Virus record (IMG/VR): IMGVR_UViG_2579778786_000004
Coordinates: 1 to 47,988 of that record
From: a virus
Taxonomy: Duplodnaviria > Heunggongvirae > Uroviricota > Caudoviricetes
DNA: 47,988 nucleotides
Direction: 5' to 3' (one strand)
Part shown: positions 3,786-47,988 of the stretch, piece by piece
How the letters are laid out: every line of letters starts with the position of its first letter
Position numbering within the stretch: position 1 is the first letter of the stretch
The notes under the pieces: model-generated
The model's database searches: none
What the model was told of the DNA's origin: nothing
The model's input: the letters and a program-made list of their open reading frames with translations, nothing else
Translations under genes and position numbers: made by a program

Positions 3786-4589
3786 TTAAACAATTATGCC
3801 TCGGCGCAGGGCATAGCTTTGAATGTACGCATACATGGAGGCCTCTTCCGCATTCGTCAGCGCTCTGTCCCAGAGCATTGCCAGCATGATCTCCGTTGTT
3901 GCTACCGTAGTCCCAGATGGTCCACGCGTACCAATACGGAGAGTGGCGGTGTTGCGCAGGTCACGAACGTTACCCGATACCAGTGCCTGTGAAGCCTGCG
4001 TGCTCTTGGTGAGGTTTTTTACATAACGGTTGCCGGCGGTTCCTGAAACACCCGTCCCGTCGATTTTCCCCAAAATAGCCCTCCACCAGGTGTCATCTGC
4101 CGCTGCAAGAGAGGTTGGAAGTCCAGACTCTGCAGTTAATACAGCAGAGTTAGCGTTCGATGCGGTTCCGGCGACACCGGTATAGGATGCGCCAACCATT
4201 TGCTGCGTGCCGACAGCCTCAAATACGATACCGCAACCTTGTGCCGTTACCGAGTTACCGCTTTCAGTAATGACATTGTTAAAGTTGGTAAATAGCGGCA
4301 GGCGAACAGTTTGAGGGGCATATATTTTGGCAACAACAATCATCGTTGGGTTTGCCATTTCAGCAATATTAGTGTCGATATAATTGGTTAATGACAGCTG
4401 GGAACTATATTCCGTTACGTGATTTGGTGTTCCTACAATGGTGGGCTGGACTCCGCCAGCCACCTGGTTTACCCATAATCCTTTAGAGCCACCAAACCAC
4501 ACTCCAAGCAGGCCATCCATAACAGGAACATTAATGCCCATTGAAAAAGACTGAGCATTTACATTTTTTCCAATAATTACTGCACCCAT
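3786..4589 (-). CDS. Hypothetical protein, coupled to the upstream esterase-domain gene
   Basis: 267 aa ORF; start codon overlaps stop of the 4592-6925 gene (ATGGGTGCAGTAA context); no recognisable motif. Confidence 0.5.
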   Translation of the reverse strand: MGAVIIGKNVNAQSFSMGINVPVMDGLLGVWFGGSKGLWVNQVAGGVQPTIVGTPNHVTEYSSQLSLTNYIDTNIAEMANPTMIVVAKIYAPQTVRLPLFTNFNNVITESGNSVTAQGCGIVFEAVGTQQMVGASYTGVAGTASNANSAVLTAESGLPTSLAAADDTWWRAILGKIDGTGVSGTAGNRYVKNLTKSTQASQALVSGNVRDLRNTATLRIGTRGPSGTTVATTEIMLAMLWDRALTNAEEASMYAYIQSYALRRGIIV

Positions 4590-4591
4590 TT

Positions 4592-6925
4592 TTAGGCCTC
4601 TTCAGTAGCTGTAATAATGTCAGCGCCGCACCAGTTTTGCAGTGCGTACGGTTTACCATTTAGTTCAGAAATTGATTCTGCTGCTGGCGAGCCGGTTACC
4701 AGTTCCCACTTATATGTTGATAATGAGTCGTCACTATCAGCGATATTGTGAACGCCAGAATGATAGGTTTTATCTCCAAGCCAAATATTTACCGGAGCAA
4801 CCAGTTTTCTTGATGCGACAATTTTAACTACCACGTCAGAAGCTAATGTCACGGTCAAATCTGAACCATACAAAACCCCCTGCGCATCTTTTATGGTAAA
4901 ACCTTTATCGGCAAAACTTGTTGCCACATTTCCTACATATCCGGGAGTAAATTTAACTGGAGGGACGGGAACCGAAAAAGCTATGTTAACTGTATCTTCT
5001 CTAAAAATAGCCTCGCGCATGCGAAAAACTGGCCTTCCGCATCCCCTTTGCACTAAATCCATAACCTTGCCTGCATCGCATCCAAACCAGCGATATGAAT
5101 TAGCAAACATGTGGTTGTCGTTGCCATCAGGATTCACTGGTTTTGGCAAATGTCCCACCGGATTAACAAATGTCGCCAAGCCTGGATTATTGTCGCAGAA
5201 ATCAAGAAGTGCGCGAGACACCGCCATTGAATTTGAATCAGAGGTATACGTGCCACCCGGTTGATAATTATACCAGTGCGGTGGCAGTGTCTGACCAAAA
5301 ATAGCCATCCCATCCGTGCAAATGTTGTTATAAAGCGTATTTAATGCAGTCATATATGCATCGTACGCCGTTGAACCATCGTTCTCGCCCTGCATCCACA
5401 TGAAGCCACAAAAGCGCGATGTCTTTCCTGCAGCATCTGCTGCGGCTTTAATAGCCTGAAGCGCGGTAATTACGTGATTATAGAAGTTGGGAGTCGCTCC
5501 TTTACTGAGCTGCGCGATGGTCTTTCCCCCAACACCACAACATGCGCCGGCAAAGATTCGCGACGAATCATTATCGACCATCAACCGCTGGTTATGCAGC
5601 AACTTACCGAAGTTAAGCCAGCCAGAAAGCGGGGTTTCACCGAAACTACCGGATGAAGGGCTGAGAGTGCCATCATCTAGCTGTCGCACCTCAATTAAGT
5701 TATTGAGATTGCTGTTTCCTACCGGGCCAAACTGATCTGATGTCGTGCCGCTAACGTAATTAGAGCCTCTCGGAGAATTGCCAAGCATCAGGTTCCCGAA
5801 CATGTTCAATACAGAGAGAGGCACCTGGCTATTCGTTCCGACAGAAAAAGACTGTCCATAAACAATATATATGTTTATATCTGCTGTCGGCATCTGTGTC
5901 AGGTAATAACGCTGCCGAATTGCCCCAGCGACCAGAGATAGAGAGTTGTTAGCTATTCTTGCTACAGAATCGGTGCCTGAAACCTCACCATCAACCCTAA
6001 TTTTCGTCTGGAGTTTGAAGTCTTTAGTTAACCTAAGAAAAACAATCCCGTCAGGGTCCTGCATTGTAATAATGTCAGAGCTATTCCCATCAACATAGAA
6101 CCTAATGGCACTTGACTCAATGCCAATATTGTTCCCAAGCATAGAGACAATTTGTTGTATCCAGTCATATTTAACTGTAATACCTAAACCTTTAGCCACT
6201 CCATTATTGAAGCTGGCGAGAATGCGACCATCCTCATCCTGAACAGAAAACCCATCCTCTGTAACTTTAAAAAAAGAAAAAATGGCATTTTCAAGCAACT
6301 CAGGCATAAGAGATACTTTGCTTGTTTTAAACCCTACCCCGCTATCATCCTCTTCTACTTTGGCAGCAATAAATCCGTCTTCATCGCAAAAATCAATAAG
6401 AGTTTCACTGTCTCCATTTTGATAAATGCTTTCTGCTACAGAATCGGCTTTCACTTTTGCCTCATCAACTGCAGCCTGTGACGGCATTTTCCTCCCGGTA
6501 GGTTCCAGGGTCCCTCCGTTATTAATAACTTCAATAGCCAGCGCGCTATCATCCGGGCTGCGGTAATACGTGGCGCTTCCTGTCGGAATATTAGCAATAT
6601 CTGCCTGTGCATCAGCAAGCGTCATGTATTGCTTGCTCAGAGGGATCAGGTTTTGGCGGGCTTCATCAATAACAGCGTCGGTAGCAGCTGCCATTTTTTT
6701 AGTAGCCCCAGTCATCGTATCCCGGGCGTTACCAAAACGATCTATAAAAGTATCGCTTTCGCTGTTCAGGAAATCATCGTACGCCAGGGCGTTATCATTC
6801 AGATCCTTCATGCTATTTGAAGGTCTTGGATTGCCGGTATTATATCTTTTGTCCATACCTGTTCCTGTCTTCATCTTTTCAATGAAGCAATTAAGATTGA
6901 CGCCCCGCCCCTTCAGGGCTAACAT
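4592..6925 (-). CDS. Large prophage protein with carbohydrate O-acetylesterase (SASA/SGNH, DUF303-like) domain, resembling prophage NanS-p-type esterases; likely true start at 6856 (MDKRY, RBS AGGAACAGG)
   Basis: 777 aa; central motifs GQSFSVG and WMQGENDG match the sialate-O-acetylesterase-type signature (GQSN..G / W.QGE.D); located next to tail fibre genes. Confidence 0.6.
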   Translation of the reverse strand: MLALKGRGVNLNCFIEKMKTGTGMDKRYNTGNPRPSNSMKDLNDNALAYDDFLNSESDTFIDRFGNARDTMTGATKKMAAATDAVIDEARQNLIPLSKQYMTLADAQADIANIPTGSATYYRSPDDSALAIEVINNGGTLEPTGRKMPSQAAVDEAKVKADSVAESIYQNGDSETLIDFCDEDGFIAAKVEEDDSGVGFKTSKVSLMPELLENAIFSFFKVTEDGFSVQDEDGRILASFNNGVAKGLGITVKYDWIQQIVSMLGNNIGIESSAIRFYVDGNSSDIITMQDPDGIVFLRLTKDFKLQTKIRVDGEVSGTDSVARIANNSLSLVAGAIRQRYYLTQMPTADINIYIVYGQSFSVGTNSQVPLSVLNMFGNLMLGNSPRGSNYVSGTTSDQFGPVGNSNLNNLIEVRQLDDGTLSPSSGSFGETPLSGWLNFGKLLHNQRLMVDNDSSRIFAGACCGVGGKTIAQLSKGATPNFYNHVITALQAIKAAADAAGKTSRFCGFMWMQGENDGSTAYDAYMTALNTLYNNICTDGMAIFGQTLPPHWYNYQPGGTYTSDSNSMAVSRALLDFCDNNPGLATFVNPVGHLPKPVNPDGNDNHMFANSYRWFGCDAGKVMDLVQRGCGRPVFRMREAIFREDTVNIAFSVPVPPVKFTPGYVGNVATSFADKGFTIKDAQGVLYGSDLTVTLASDVVVKIVASRKLVAPVNIWLGDKTYHSGVHNIADSDDSLSTYKWELVTGSPAAESISELNGKPYALQNWCGADIITATEEA

Positions 6926-33350: not shown

Positions 33351-33523
33351 TTCCTCGCACGATGTCTTAGCCACCGGATATCCCACAGGTGAGCCGTGTA
33401 ATTGAAGGTTTTTACGTCAGATTCTTTTGGGATTGGCTTGGGTTTATTTCTGGAGCGTTTCGTTGGAAGGTATTTGCAGTTTTCGCAGATGATGTCGGTG
33501 AAACTTCGTCGCTGTCGCCTCAT
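33347..33523 (-). CDS. ninE: NinE
   Basis: Start [20 protein letters not shown] at 33523, matches lambda NinE. Confidence 0.85.
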
Positions 33524-34047
33524 GCCGCCCTCCTGACGCCCTGCCCGATCGCCATCAATGCCGCTTTGGATACGGTAGTAAACATCCGTCGAGGACTGAT
33601 GAACGGTCGCCAAATCAGCAGCATGGAGCCTTTGCTGTTTCCCTTCTTCTCCAGCCCTGTCGATGGTTCGATAAAATTAATCCGTCCATCAGTGATAATG
33701 CGAACTTCGTCGACACTCTCCAGAGCCTTGCTGAACCATCCGACTGACATATCCTCTGGCACAAGCATAACTACCGTCTGTCGCTGTTGTATGCACTGCT
33801 CAGCGGCTTTTTCCACCCACGGCCTGATATTGCTGTACGGTGGGTTATTCCAGATTGCACCGTGGCTTACCCACTCAGAATTGAGCGCGTCGTCGGCCTC
33901 AGTTAGCCAGTGAGCACACAGAGCATTTTTGTCGCTCGCTGCCGAATCCAGCCAGAATCCAAACTCAATATCCAGTGCATCAAAAAGCCAAAGCGGCGTT
34001 TGCCAGCAGTCCTTGTCGTGCGCTGGCGTATTTGATTTGATAGTCAT
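33520..34047 (-). CDS. Phage DNA N6-adenine methyltransferase
   Basis: NPPY motif (WNNPPYS) and Dam-like N-terminus [18 protein letters not shown]; ATGA coupling to ninB and ninE. Confidence 0.8.
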
Positions 34048-34484
34048 GCAGCCCGATCTCCCCATCTCGCTTTCCACTCCAGAGCCAGTCTCGCTTCGTC
34101 TGACCACTTAACGCCACGCTCTGTACCGAATGCCTGTATAAGCTCTAATAGCTCCGCAAATTCGCCTACACGCATCCTGCTGGTTGACTGGCCTATTACC
34201 ACAAAGCCATTCCCGGCAAGGTTAGGAACAACGTCCTGCTGCTTTAATGCTGCTGTAAAAACGCACTTCCAGCTTTCTGCATCCAGCCAGCGACCATGCC
34301 ATTCAACCTGACGCGAAACGTCACCAAGGCAAGCCCAAAGCTTCCGATTTTGGTCTAAGCTGCGGTTGCGCTCCTGAATGGTTACTACGATTGGTTTTGT
34401 TGGGTCTGGAAGGATTTGCTGGATGGCTTGAATGGCGTTCTGCTGATGGATGGGGCTTCTTAGTTCAAACGTTAGTTTCCTCAT
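34044..34484 (-). CDS. ninB: NinB (Orf-family recombination mediator)
   Basis: 146 aa, near-identical to lambda NinB as recalled. Confidence 0.9.
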   Translation of the reverse strand: MRKLTFELRSPIHQQNAIQAIQQILPDPTKPIVVTIQERNRSLDQNRKLWACLGDVSRQVEWHGRWLDAESWKCVFTAALKQQDVVPNLAGNGFVVIGQSTSRMRVGEFAELLELIQAFGTERGVKWSDEARLALEWKARWGDRAA

Positions 34485-38115: not shown

Positions 38116-39468
<1,353 letters not shown>

Positions 39469-39518
39469 TCCCCACCTCAATCTCGATAACCAAAAAACAA
39501 ACTATTTTCCGTTTAAAA

Positions 39519-39587
39519 ACAATGGAGTTTGTTTTTTACGCCCCTTTTTTACAATATTTCTTGTTTACAACATACAATATTTCTTGT
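39519..39587. promoter_or_regulatory. Left operator region OL (three ACAA-N6-TTGT 14-mers) with PL
   Basis: 14-mers at 39519-39532, 39551-39564 and 39574-39587; the last two identical. Confidence 0.6.
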
Positions 39588-39642
39588 AATTTTAAGCCAT
39601 CAGCAGGACGCACTGACCACCATTGAAGGTGGCGCTCTTAAA

Positions 39643-39673
39643 AATTAAGCCCTGAAGAAGGGCAGCATTCAAA
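39643..39673 (+). promoter_or_regulatory. nutL (boxA CGCTCTTA, boxB GCCCTGAAGAAGGGC)
   Basis: Matches lambda nutL boxA and boxB; upstream of N. Confidence 0.85.
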
Positions 39674-39773
39674 GCAGAAAGCTTTGAGTAGCGCGAAATG
39701 CAGCTGCAAGACAGCAACCGTGGAGATAAGCATCACGGCGCGTTACTCAAAGCTAACTGACAGGAGAATCCAG

Positions 39774-40100
39774 ATGGATGCACAAGCACGCCGCCGCGAA
39801 CGTCGCGCAGAGAAACAGGCTCAATGGAAAGCAGCAAATCCCCTGTTGGTTGGGGTAAGCGCAAAGCCAGTTAACCGCCCTATTCTCTCGCTGAATCGCA
39901 AACCGAAATCACGAGTAGAAAGCGCACTGAATCCTATAGACCTTACAGTGCTGGCTGAATACCACGAACAGATTGAAAGCAACCTGCAACGTATTGAACG
40001 CAAGAATCAGCGCACATGGTACAGCAAGCCACGCAGTGAAATGAGTGTGACTTGTGTTGGTCGCCAGAAAATGAAATTAGGCAGCAAACCACTTATTTGA
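39774..40100 (+). CDS. N: Antitermination protein N (lambda type)
   Basis: 108 aa from MDAQARRRERRAEKQAQWKAANPLLVG, near-identical to lambda N N-terminal arginine-rich motif. Confidence 0.9.
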   Translation: MDAQARRRERRAEKQAQWKAANPLLVGVSAKPVNRPILSLNRKPKSRVESALNPIDLTVLAEYHEQIESNLQRIERKNQRTWYSKPRSEMSVTCVGRQKMKLGSKPLI

Positions 40101-40111
40101 GAGGAATTAAT

Positions 40112-40735
40112 ATGTCATCAATCCGCTTAACTACGAGAATGAAAGAGGAAATCGCTCGTAACGCTTTAATTAAGTCTGGGGTTTTCACTGAACTTAAAGA
40201 AGTAACAAAGTTAAAGAACCAGCTTGCACTTGACGCCAGAGTTATTGCGTTTGGCGGTAAAAAGAAAACTGAGGAAGTGGATCAGTTATCATCCAGGTTA
40301 GTAGCTATAAGTGAAGAACTTGAAAAGATGGGATGTTCATTTTACTCATACGATGTTCGTTCTACTTCAATTTATCTGACTGTATCTGGCAGAAGGGTTG
40401 GATGGCATTCATATGGGAAAGACGGCAACGGCGAAGATATATTGCTCCCTACTCCGACCAAAGATAAATGCATGTTTAGCGCAGAACACGAAATAACAAA
40501 AAGGTTTGATGAAATCTGCGCATTGCAACAAAAACTTGAAGCCAAGAAAAAGGATATCGAATCAAATGTATGGGCTGCTTTGAACTCAGTCACAACAGTT
40601 AAGCGACTTATTGAAGTTTGGCCTGAAAGCAAAGAATTGCTACCAGAAGAAGCAGATAAAGCAAGTACAGCACTTCCTGCTTTACGGGTAGAAGATTTGA
40701 ATAAGATGATTGGACTTCCTTCCGAGGCCGCATAG
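40112..40735 (+). CDS. Hypothetical protein, first gene after N in the PL operon
   Basis: 207 aa from MSSIRLTT (RBS GAGAGGAA), soluble, coiled-coil segments. Confidence 0.55.
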   Translation: MSSIRLTTRMKEEIARNALIKSGVFTELKEVTKLKNQLALDARVIAFGGKKKTEEVDQLSSRLVAISEELEKMGCSFYSYDVRSTSIYLTVSGRRVGWHSYGKDGNGEDILLPTPTKDKCMFSAEHEITKRFDEICALQQKLEAKKKDIESNVWAALNSVTTVKRLIEVWPESKELLPEEADKASTALPALRVEDLNKMIGLPSEAA

Positions 40736-40959
40736 TCGGCCTTTACTTTTGGCATAAACAACAGAATAAACACTGCACTGTGTATTCATTCCAACGAGTG
40801 AATACACGGAGCAATGTCGCTCGTAACCAAACAGGAGCCGACTTGTTCTGATTATTGGAAATCTTCTTTGCCCTCCAGTGTGAGGGCCTTTTTATATGCA
40901 TACCAATAACGCTTCACTCGAGGCGTTTTCGTTATGCAATCAAATATAAGGAGTTACCC

Positions 40960-41094
40960 ATGATGCACTTTCAGCTCGCGGGTAGCGGCGTCATGTCCGC
41001 TTTCTACCCGCACGAATCTGAATTATCACGCCGAGTTAAACAATTAATCAGAGCAGCAAAGAAACAACTGGAGACGTTATGCGCAATGAAATAG
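40960..41094 (+). CDS. Small hypothetical protein
   Basis: 44 aa with strong RBS AAGGAG upstream of ATG 40960. Confidence 0.35.
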   Translation: MMHFQLAGSGVMSAFYPHESELSRRVKQLIRAAKKQLETLCAMK

Positions 41095-41231
41095 CCATCA
41101 ATCACCAGATGCTTCGTGCTGCACAGAACAAAGCAGTAATAGCCAGATTTATTGGTGATTCCAAAATGTGGCTTGAAGCAAATAAAGAGATGAAATCAGC
41201 TATCAACCTTCCATGGTATCGCAGGAAATGA
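41079..41231 (+). CDS. kil: Kil-like small protein
   Basis: 50 aa; segment IARFIGDSKMWLEA resembles lambda Kil (IATFIGDEKMFREA) as recalled. Confidence 0.45.
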   Translation: MRNEIAINHQMLRAAQNKAVIARFIGDSKMWLEANKEMKSAINLPWYRRK

Positions 41232-41306
41232 GTTTTACAGATAACTGGTCAGACGAAGAATTCATTCGTCAGATGAAAGAATTAATCGGTAACGAAGGAG
41301 ATATTC

Positions 41307-42676: not shown

Positions 42677-43156
42677 ATGAAAATCTGCTCAAGATGCCAT
42701 CAACAGAAGGAAGAAAGGGACTTTCAAATCAGAAGAGCATCCAGAGATGGATTAACTGCCGCTTGCCGGGCTTGCCTGGCTGAATACGACAAAGAACGCG
42801 CTGGATTGCCACATCGAGTATCAGCAAGGAGAGAATATCAATCATCGGAACGCGGAAGAGAACGGTGTAACGCAGCCAAAAAGCGGTTCATTCAGAGCAA
42901 CCCATGGAAAAGAAAAGCCCACATCATTGTGGGTAATTTTTTGCGCGACGGTAAGCTAATCCGACCACCACAATGTGAGTGCTGCGGATCAGAATGTAAA
43001 CCACAGGCGCACCACTGCGACTACAGCAAACCAACCGATGTGATGTGGCTCTGCAAGTCATGTCATGCCGAGTGGCACAAACATAACAAACCTATCTACC
43101 CAGACGAGGAACCAGTAACTCTCCCCTTCCCTCGTCACGCTATTCACGCAATTTAA
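42677..43156 (+). CDS. Cys-rich zinc-binding protein, possible HNH-type nuclease
   Basis: 159 aa with CSRC...CRAC and CECCGSEC...HHC...CKSCH..WH arrangement. Confidence 0.45.
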   Translation: MKICSRCHQQKEERDFQIRRASRDGLTAACRACLAEYDKERAGLPHRVSARREYQSSERGRERCNAAKKRFIQSNPWKRKAHIIVGNFLRDGKLIRPPQCECCGSECKPQAHHCDYSKPTDVMWLCKSCHAEWHKHNKPIYPDEEPVTLPFPRHAIHAI

Positions 43157-46010: not shown

Positions 46011-46211
46011 ATGCAACACGAACTACAGCCTGATTCACTGGTTGATTTGAAATTCATCATGGCTGATACTGGCTTTGGTAAAACCTTCATCTATGACCGG
46101 ATTAAGTCCGGCGACCTGCCAAAAGCCAAAGTTATCCACGGTCGAGCAAGATGGTTATATCGTGACCATTGTGAATTCAAAAATAAGCTCTTAAGCCGCG
46201 CCAATGGGTAA
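46011..46211 (+). CDS. torI: Excisionase / recombination directionality factor, AlpA family (TorI-like)
   Basis: 66 aa; matches E. coli TorI as recalled; sits immediately inside attR. Confidence 0.8.
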   Translation: MQHELQPDSLVDLKFIMADTGFGKTFIYDRIKSGDLPKAKVIHGRARWLYRDHCEFKNKLLSRANG

Positions 46212-46740: not shown

Positions 46741-47988
46741 CTATATTGCTGAAGGTACAGGCGTTTCCATAACTATTTGCTCGCGTTTTTTACTCAAGAA
46801 GAAAATGCCAAATAGCAACATCAGGCAGACAATACCCGAAATTGCGAAGAAAACTGTCTGGTAGCCTGCGTGGTCAAAGAGTATCCCAGTCGGCGTTGAA
46901 AGCAGCACAATCCCAAGCGAACTGGCAATTTGAAAACCAATCAGAAAGATCGTCGACGACAGGCGCTTATCAAAGTTTGCCACGCTGTATTTGAAGACGG
47001 ATATGACACAAAGTGGAACCTCAATGGCATGTAACAACTTCACTAATGAAATAATCCAGGGGTTAACGAACAGCGCGCAGGAAAGGATACGCAACGCCAT
47101 AATCACAACTCCGATAAGTAATGCATTTTTTGGCCCTACCCGATTCACAAAGAAAGGAATAATCGCCATGCACAGCGCTTCGAGTACCACCTGGAATGAG
47201 TTGAGATAACCATACAGGCGCGTTCCTACATCGTGTGATTCGAATAAACCTGCATAAAAGACAGGAAAAAGTTGTTGATCAAAAATGTTATAGAAAGACC
47301 ACGTCCCCACAATAAATATGACAAAAACCCAGAAGTTTCGATCCTTGAAAACTGCGATAAAATCCTCTTTTTTTACCCCTCCCGCATCTGCCGCTACGCA
47401 CTGGTGATCCTTATCTTTAAAACGCATGTTGATCATCATAAATACAGCGCCAAATAGCGAGACCAACCAGAAGTTGATATGGGGACTGATACTAAAAAAT
47501 ATGCCGGCAAAGAACGCGCCAATAGCATAGCCAAAAGATCCCCAGGCGCGCGCTGTTCCATATTCGAAATGAAAATTTCGCGCCATTTTTTCGGTGAAGC
47601 TATCAAGCAAACCGCATCCCGCCAGATACCCCAAGCCAAAAAATAGCGCCCCCAGAATTAGACCTACAGAAAAATTGCTTTGCAGTAACGGTTCATAAAC
47701 GTAAATCATAAACGGTCCGGTCAAGACCAGGATGAAACTCATACACCAGATGAGCGGTTTCTTCAGACCGAGTTTATCCTGAACGATGCCGTAGAACATC
47801 ATAAATAGAATGCTGGTAAACTGGTTGACCGAATAAAGTGTACCTAATTCCGTCCCTGTCAACCCTAGATGTCCTTTCAGCCAAATAGCGTATAACGACC
47901 ACCACAGCGACCAGGAAATAAAAAAGAGAAATGAGTAACTGGATGCAAAACGATAGTACGCATTTCTGAATGGAATATTCAGTGCCAT
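46741..47988 (-). CDS. cscB: MFS oligosaccharide:H+ symporter of the LacY family (sucrose permease CscB-like); host gene right of the prophage
   Basis: 415 aa, 12 TM segments, LacY-family motifs; N-terminus MALNIPFRNAYYRFASSYSF as recalled for CscB; start codon at window edge. Confidence 0.7.
   Translation of the reverse strand: MALNIPFRNAYYRFASSYSFLFFISWSLWWSLYAIWLKGHLGLTGTELGTLYSVNQFTSILFMMFYGIVQDKLGLKKPLIWCMSFILVLTGPFMIYVYEPLLQSNFSVGLILGALFFGLGYLAGCGLLDSFTEKMARNFHFEYGTARAWGSFGYAIGAFFAGIFFSISPHINFWLVSLFGAVFMMINMRFKDKDHQCVAADAGGVKKEDFIAVFKDRNFWVFVIFIVGTWSFYNIFDQQLFPVFYAGLFESHDVGTRLYGYLNSFQVVLEALCMAIIPFFVNRVGPKNALLIGVVIMALRILSCALFVNPWIISLVKLLHAIEVPLCVISVFKYSVANFDKRLSSTIFLIGFQIASSLGIVLLSTPTGILFDHAGYQTVFFAISGIVCLMLLFGIFFLSKKREQIVMETPVPSAI

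Follow-up and report, generated by a model that had tools for sequence, protein, structure and literature searches.

The 207-residue protein encoded directly downstream of the antitermination gene N in a lambdoid prophage was revealed to be a full-length member of the Nmad5 family, an assignment that is close to certain. The gene was studied within a 47,988-nt stretch of viral DNA analysed as a whole, hereafter referred to as the window. As to the role of its product, we tentatively favor, as a possibility that falls somewhat short of an even chance, a non-catalytic early protein acting by contact at the interface of phage DNA replication and recombination.

An Nmad5-family gene in the early left operon

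The open reading frame (ORF) spans positions 40112-40735 on the plus strand, starts with ATG and ends with TAG, which confirms the 207 residues proposed by the initial annotation of this DNA. A profile search aligned residues 4-203 of the protein to positions 1-206 of the 206 that make up the Pfam model PF18757 (Nmad5, in full "Nucleotide modification associated domain 5") with an E-value of 6.3e-72 and a score of 242.4 bits against a cut-off of 27, that is, above the Pfam gathering threshold across the whole model. The protein also matched phrog_1965 (E 8.8e-84), for which the PHROG function label is unknown, and its homologs are named "Nmad5 family putative nucleotide modification protein" at NCBI and UniRef. 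This full-length membership in PF18757 and PHROG 1965 replaces the initial description of an unknown product devoid of recognizable motifs; the homology is strong, yet it leads to a named family that is not experimentally characterized rather than to a characterized one of unrelated function. Together with the Pfam score, the at least 871 clusters that the family forms at 50% identity (E<0.001, in a representative library) identify the ORF as a real gene. It is already catalogued, being present in sequenced model lambdoid phages and bearing a RefSeq name, and is not a new kind of system. On the other hand, PADLOC models retrieved 0 families at E up to 1, the NCBIfam search yielded no match, and none of Ral, Lar, SieB, Ocr and ArdA appeared among the Pfam and PHROG matches of the protein at E up to 1.

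The gene is AT-rich, with a GC content of 40.2% as compared with 49.7% for the window, and a GC3 of 33.7% as compared with 43-50% in the neighboring genes. A 133-aa antisense ORF at 40372-40773 (-), annotated as HK542c101 in the GenBank record of phage HK542, was dismissed as a probable non-gene: it belongs to no PHROG family and is entirely contained in the Nmad5 ORF plus the 3' flank of the latter. We also observed that many enterobacterial members of the family end in -AA (SEAA, TEQAA, TSEAA, SEAAAA), the C-terminus being encoded here at 40727-40732; such ends are reminiscent of ClpXP degradation tags.

The proposed location of the gene, the first one after N, was borne out by the upstream ORF at 39774-40100 (+), which encodes a lambda-type antiterminator N of 108 aa (Pfam N36, E 3.2e-25) and shares ~98% DNA identity with the N genes of HK542 and HK244. 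Upstream of N, a nutL site was read from the sequence at 39633-39663 (+), with boxA CGCTCTTAA at 39633-39641 and boxB GCCCTGAAGAAGGGC at 39649-39663, both reading like those of lambda. The boxB hairpin was also picked up by the terminator scan, and equivalents of nutL are annotated in HK542. The Nmad5 gene begins 11 nt after N and is preceded by a GAGG Shine-Dalgarno sequence (40101-40104, +) that is located 7 nt before the ATG, at the N stop codon (TGA, 40098-40100), an arrangement in which its translation may possibly be coupled to that of N. Consensus scans of the plus strand predicted neither terminator-like sites from nutL to 40724 nor promoter-like sites within 39316-41234, and an Rfam scan of 39300-41300 returned sub-threshold chance matches only. 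From the 11-nt spacing and the lack of predicted terminators before 40724, we infer that pL would drive transcription of the gene jointly with N, at a stage at which antitermination is not yet required, and that the gene would be silent in the lysogen.

On the downstream side, the terminator-like hairpin of the initial annotation turned out to be one of three on the plus strand. The first (40724-40753, stem-loop 40724-40743; GAGGCCG-CATAGT-CGGCCTT plus TACTTTTGG) overlaps the Nmad5 stop codon and, as evidenced by sequence alignment, is kept after other genes, namely Sf6 gene 34 and lambda ral. The second is an intrinsic terminator (40870-40896, stem-loop 40870-40887; GCCCTC-CAGTGT-GAGGGC plus CTTTTTATAT) homologous to a site annotated in Sf6 as "terminator, homology to lambda tL2A". 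The third (40908-40935, stem-loop 40908-40927), with a T-rich tail, maps directly before cIII and is present in lambda too, between Ea10 and cIII. In addition, the perfect 9-bp-stem palindrome reported at 40780-40807 is exact, with the arms GTGTATTCA (40780-40788) and TGAATACAC (40799-40807) flanking 10 nt, and extends imperfectly to 22-nt arms at 40770-40817. With this extended palindrome the lambdoid "boundary sequence 4" begins, and lambda has an identical palindrome after ral. The folding of the region 40715-40935 surpassed that of shuffled sequence by far (z = -5.7), 0 of 200 shuffles being as good.

The ~240 bp downstream of the Nmad5 gene are common lambdoid sequence, found in 379 phage records. 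The Sf6 annotation names the element "bsq4; boundary sequence", in HK542 "boundary sequence 4" starts 40 nt past the Nmad5 gene, and in lambda the hairpin, the identical palindrome and the GCCCTC/GAGGGC terminator all lie after ral and before Ea10. Positions 40725-40965 thus correspond to the element found after ral in lambda and HK140, and after gene 34 in Sf6, in agreement with the lambda ral position initially assigned to the gene. The palindrome and hairpins are therefore a conserved boundary/tL2 region and not specific to the Nmad5 gene, and this shared downstream element indicates that the gene occupies a variable slot between N and boundary sequence 4. The slot is the same as that of lambda ral, whereas the proteins have no sequence similarity and differ in length (66 aa in Ral and 207 aa in Nmad5).

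Further downstream, the window encodes cIII (40960-41094, +; Pfam cIII, E 7.8e-30, over residues 37-73 of ORF 40855-41094), which is the next early-left gene, followed by kil, a Rad52-type annealing protein, SSB, an HNH endonuclease and Abc2. The HNH endonuclease gene (phrog_2340; 42677-43156, +), between those of SSB and abc2, is present in only 7 of 80 close lambdoid loci and therefore looks like a mobile insertion. Elsewhere in the window, the ORF at 38992-39468 (+), just after the repressor gene in the rex position, belongs to phrog_2651 (function label unknown); an internal Met followed in the sequence by a signal-peptide-like stretch makes it a candidate for a moron that the lysogen expresses and secretes. 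The last phage gene encodes the excisionase TorI (46011-46211, +) and is followed by the host gene of an oligosaccharide MFS transporter (46741-47988, -). Neither an integrase gene nor a tRNA gene was found at this end of the window, which suggests a layout of the KplE1/CPS-53 type, in which we take the integrase to be at the opposite end from TorI.

Distribution and predicted architecture of Nmad5 proteins

The same gene was found at 96-98% protein identity in mEp235 (gp37), HK542 (HK542c102) and HK244, and at ~96% in several Stx1 phages, the overall range among close phages being 96-99%; all these copies are annotated as hypothetical. It is present in 211 of 5426 complete E. coli genomes, with the PGAP label Nmad5 in the records listed. 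The window and mEp235 copies differ by 2 synonymous and 4 non-synonymous codons, too few to gauge selection. A literature search for PF18757 or phrog_1965 found nothing, and the literature mentioning HK542 or mEp235 does not address the gene.

The comparison with the HK542 and mEp235 copies revealed no substantive difference, all of them residing in the same slot, after N or Nun and before boundary sequence 4. It is the N side that differs: the window gene directly abuts a lambda-type N, whereas the mEp235 copy follows a Nun-like gene. Between this Nun-like gene and Nmad5, mEp235 carries (3957-4092) the terminator hairpin AGCCCACTTCGGTGGGTTTTTT and, after it, an 82-nt remnant of the 3' end of a lambda-type N, and the latter reads as a footprint of cassette movement between phages. 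In the Stx2a phage Stx2_EH1965, the homolog is broken after ~codon 35, at a point equivalent to window positions 40215-40218, by a ~1.31-kb IS3-family element (500-1808) encoding orfA (108 aa) and orfB (296 aa), and the 4 bp that overlap at the junction resemble a target duplication. The same truncated match pattern (query 34-207) recurs in each of the other listed Stx2a phage records. This interruption evidences that the gene is dispensable in the examined Stx2a phage.

In 80 close lambdoid loci, the upstream neighbor was a lambda-type N (21), an HK620/mEp235-type N (29), Nun (8) or ral (11), and the downstream genes included Rad52 plus SSB (21), Red gam/bet (7) and Abc2 (48). Such a variety of N types and recombination modules indicates that Nmad5 assorts independently and is not tied to one recombination system, while its occurrence together with an upstream ral in 11 of the 80 phages argues that it is not simply a ral substitute. 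Collectively, these data define Nmad5 in lambdoids as an AT-rich, independently assorting and dispensable cassette.

The family occurs in phages of enterobacteria, Vibrio, Pseudomonas, Bordetella and a cyanobacterium, and homologs are common in virulent phages. Among the best 150 and the best 120 relatives listed, all are ~200 aa long and those with Pfam annotation carry PF18757 only, with no fusions. The window protein conforms to this stand-alone architecture of ~200 residues with the family fold, BFVD models of Nmad5 proteins matching it with TM scores up to 0.75.

An AlphaFold model built with 74 diverse homologs (pLDDT 91.5, pTM 0.80) predicts a long helical bundle with helices at residues 8-47, 50-72 and 127-158 and a beta hairpin at 86-100, and a small helical C-terminal module at 163-200, the tail (181-207) being less confident. 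These helices, a maximum Kyte-Doolittle score of 0.61 over 19-residue windows and a GRAVY of -0.37 are consistent with the soluble, coiled-coil protein anticipated by the initial annotation; the 19-residue scan detected no hydrophobic or membrane segment. In the model, single-residue beta bridges at positions 5 and 162 (DSSP) hint at packing of the N-terminus onto the C-terminal module. The fold search against solved structures returned no match and no enzyme-like fold, and the protein lacks cofactor motifs.

Conservation concentrates at this predicted end of the molecule. Scores were 0.70 for residues 159-180, 0.53 for the N-terminus and 0.52 for the tail, as compared with 0.32-0.43 for the shaft and hairpin. 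Residues K164, L166, W170, P171, E172, P178, N197, G201 and P203 remain unchanged even in very distant members, and these, along with R5, L6 and T162, place in the window protein all the family motifs, that is, the N-terminal RL, T-x-K-[KR]-L-I-x-x-W-P-E...L-P and L-N-x-x-I-G-L-P. Seven of the invariant or near-invariant residues are polar (R5, R43, T162, K164, E172 and N197, plus N17 in close relatives). Inspection of the C-terminal tail by eye gave no convincing match to clamp-binding or other known short motifs.

Gene neighborhoods in diverse phages

We further clustered the neighbors of Nmad5 genes in 39 diverse loci dereplicated at 80% Nmad5 identity, a sample biased by a search pattern that leaves out the YuA-type WPEVEQF variants. 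A family-A DNA polymerase was the most frequent (15 of the 39 loci, usually at position +1 or +2), followed by a cI-like repressor recognized by sequence (13, upstream), a DUF2800 PD-(D/E)XK nuclease (12, usually at -2) and an Enc34-type SSB (9, usually at -1). At varying positions, the loci also contained a ResIII helicase (9), a DUF3799 nuclease (6), a VRR-NUC (6) and an SNF2 helicase (5). Nmad5 adjoins exonuclease/primase/Sak4/SSB genes in the N4-like phage Pollock, AAA_24/DUF669/helicase genes in other loci and DUF3799/AAA_24 genes elsewhere. Among the commonest neighbor families of the 39 loci, no recognizable modification enzyme was found, 4 of the 10 cluster representatives scanned having no Pfam match. 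The replication/recombination context is clearly commoner than the base-modification context for Nmad5 genes.

Candidate roles of the Nmad5 protein

The tentative reading put forward at the outset would have Nmad5 as a protein that is not an enzyme and works via protein-protein (or protein-DNA) contact. Its conserved end, made up of the R5-L6 segment, the stretch T162-x-K164-R165-L-I-x-x-W170-P-E172...L-P178 and the flexible tail L-P-A...L-N197-x-x-I-G-L-P203, would dock onto a partner shared by many hosts or phages, whereas the helical shaft and beta hairpin, being variable, would be adapted to the individual phage. In lambdoids, Nmad5 would be an optional accessory, not a core function. The stand-alone architecture, the conservation concentrated at one end and the replication/recombination neighbors in the 39 loci would all fit such an accessory role, and so would the window operon, headed by Nmad5 and encoding the Rad52-type protein, SSB, the HNH endonuclease and Abc2.

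Genetic data on a distant homolog may point in the same direction. In Dhillonvirus phages, the substitution K296E/K216E in Nmad5 (SM_S22 CDS6 / SM_A8 CDS7) leads to escape from the Tmn defence, deletion of the gene is possible yet leaves Tmn sensitivity unchanged, and cloning of the wild-type gene failed, an outcome ascribed by the authors to toxicity (PMC11846954, Yamashita et al. 2025). They term the protein a "DNA modification enzyme" (PMC11846954), a label taken solely from the family name. The Dhillonvirus and window proteins belong to the same family and share the conserved C-terminal motif; they differ in that identity is ~33%, the Dhillonvirus copy has larger insertions in the beta region, and its gene lies on the opposite strand inside a head-gene cluster, whereas the window copy is in an early operon. 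The Tmn-escape lysine (K296 of 334 aa, K216 of 254 aa) aligns with R165 of the window protein, so that the sole phenotype-changing mutation known in the family maps beside the invariant K164. SM_S22 CDS6 (5005-6009; 334 aa) consists of the conserved 254-aa form preceded by an extension of 80 residues, which the other aligned members lack and which overlaps the scaffold gene. Its annotated start may be wrong and the extension an annotation artefact, which would explain the different numbering of K296 and K216. In T2, Tmn is triggered by RIIB, for which the authors use the term early replisome factor (bioRxiv 10.64898/2026.03.01.708804, 2026 preprint). The apparent toxicity and the dispensability of the Dhillonvirus homolog, its escape site beside the conserved lysine and this link of RIIB to Tmn would be in line with an accessory acting by contact.

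Several considerations temper the accessory reading. A link of Nmad5 to a phage polymerase cannot be general, since lambdoids replicate with host enzymes. The free assortment of the gene with different N types and recombination modules in the 80 lambdoid loci also counts against the accessory reading. Replication modules also house host-inhibitor genes, such as T7 5.5 and 5.9, and synteny therefore cannot separate an accessory from an inhibitor. The conserved polar residues could also form a small-ligand or catalytic site within a new fold. A bolder version, which we regard as unlikely and put forward as speculation, would make Nmad5 a new class of non-enzymatic early factor with an unsolved fold. 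Its invariant module (TxK[KR]LIxxWPE plus the flexible LN..IGLP tail) would dock on a host component kept over the range from enterobacteria to cyanobacteria, such as a protein of the replisome or of DNA repair, and would either bring DNA-processing enzymes of the phage to nascent DNA or shield intermediates of replication and recombination, the same interface being read by Tmn.

Rather than assisting phage DNA metabolism, the protein could serve anti-defence or host takeover, being made at once from pL and neutralizing a host nuclease or immune sensor like Ral, Gam, Abc2 or T7 gp5.9, an explanation that we consider somewhat unlikely but with an appreciable chance of being right. The slot is indeed occupied by ral in lambda, HK140 and Sf6 and, in HK446, by an "anti-restriction protein", and the low GC3 of the gene is moron-like. 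Dispensability, as evidenced by the IS3-split gene of the examined Stx2a phage and the deletable one of a Dhillonvirus, fits equally, as do the failure to clone the homolog, attributed to toxicity, and the change in Tmn outcome upon a point mutation in the conserved motif (PMC11846954). However, the deletion of that homolog, with Tmn sensitivity unaltered, speaks against this explanation (PMC11846954), and so does the lack of PADLOC, Ral, Ocr or ArdA matches. DNA mimics of the Ocr/ArdA type have a strongly acidic surface; the window protein balances 32 K+R with 32 D+E, has no structural match to them and, with its neutral pI of 6.8, is not a DNA mimic. Further against anti-defence, Nmad5 is found alongside ral in 11 and Abc2 in 48 of the 80 loci, and a family of at least 871 clusters with a motif invariant from enterobacteria to a cyanobacterium is unusual for inhibitors of fast-evolving defence proteins.

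A component of base modification, be it an enzyme or a subunit that confers specificity or stimulates activity, for example acting in a Ral-like manner on the phage Dam methyltransferase, is improbable in our assessment. Ral relieves restriction in that it stimulates the modification carried out by type I systems, and the window prophage does carry, ~6 kb from Nmad5 in the nin region, a gene for a phage Dam-type N6-adenine methyltransferase (33520-34107, -; PF05869, E 9e-65), the sole DNA-modifying gene among the window parts scanned. Moreover, Nmad5 lies between aGPT-Pplase1 and a thymidylate-synthase-like (dUMP hydroxymethylase-like) gene in YuA, Pam3 and SN1/M6-type phages, adjoins a thymidylate synthase gene in Pollock, and, in an Aeromonas prophage, lies two genes ahead of those for Dam and a C5 methyltransferase. 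The homologs of these thymidine-hypermodifying phages (YuA gp15, the SN1/M6 type and Pam3 gp51) are 31-44% identical to the window protein over its C-terminal half (121-207) and share the WPE and LN..GLP motifs.

Their flanking genes are what sets them apart: the scan of early-left and nin-region ORFs of the window detected no gene for an aGPT-Pplase, a 5-hmdU kinase or a thymidylate-synthase-like protein. Apart from the Dam gene ~6 kb away, the association with base-modification genes on which the family name is based was thus not seen in these ORFs; it is a contextual feature and not a criterion of the HMM. The name Nmad5 derives from gene neighborhoods, and the family was reportedly first defined in Iyer et al. 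2013. The predicted structure, with neither an enzyme-like fold nor a cofactor motif, and the lack of recognizable modification enzymes among the commonest neighbors in the 39 loci (with the 4 of 10 representatives that have no Pfam match) further argue against a part in modification. So does the finding that 5-NedU, the hypermodification of M6, was rebuilt in vitro from gp51-gp54 alone, Nmad5 not being among the proteins used (PMC8989533); the presumed placement of Nmad5 on the M6 gene map follows from synteny with SN1.

Finally, superinfection exclusion of the sieB type, to which the position of the gene points (sieB lies beside N in lambda), is hardly credible: such a lysogen-expressed membrane protein with its own promoter contrasts with a product free of membrane segments (19-residue maximum 0.61), a plus strand without promoter-like sites in the consensus scan of 39316-41234, homologs common in virulent phages, and an orientation with pL and direct coupling to N that should keep the gene repressed in the lysogen.

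Among these readings, the contact-based accessory at the replication/recombination interface is the one we tentatively retain. The Nmad5 gene itself is ordinary, and its value is that of a tractable handle on a large, strongly conserved and functionally blank family, whose name should not be taken as function. The lambdoid copy is probably immediate-early and dispensable, and resides in phages growing on E. coli K-12. This tractable lambdoid site, together with a known mutation beside a lysine shared across the family, makes deletion and point-mutant work informative for the family as a whole. If the docking reading is true, it would be testable in E. coli K-12 with the HK542 or mEp235 copy.
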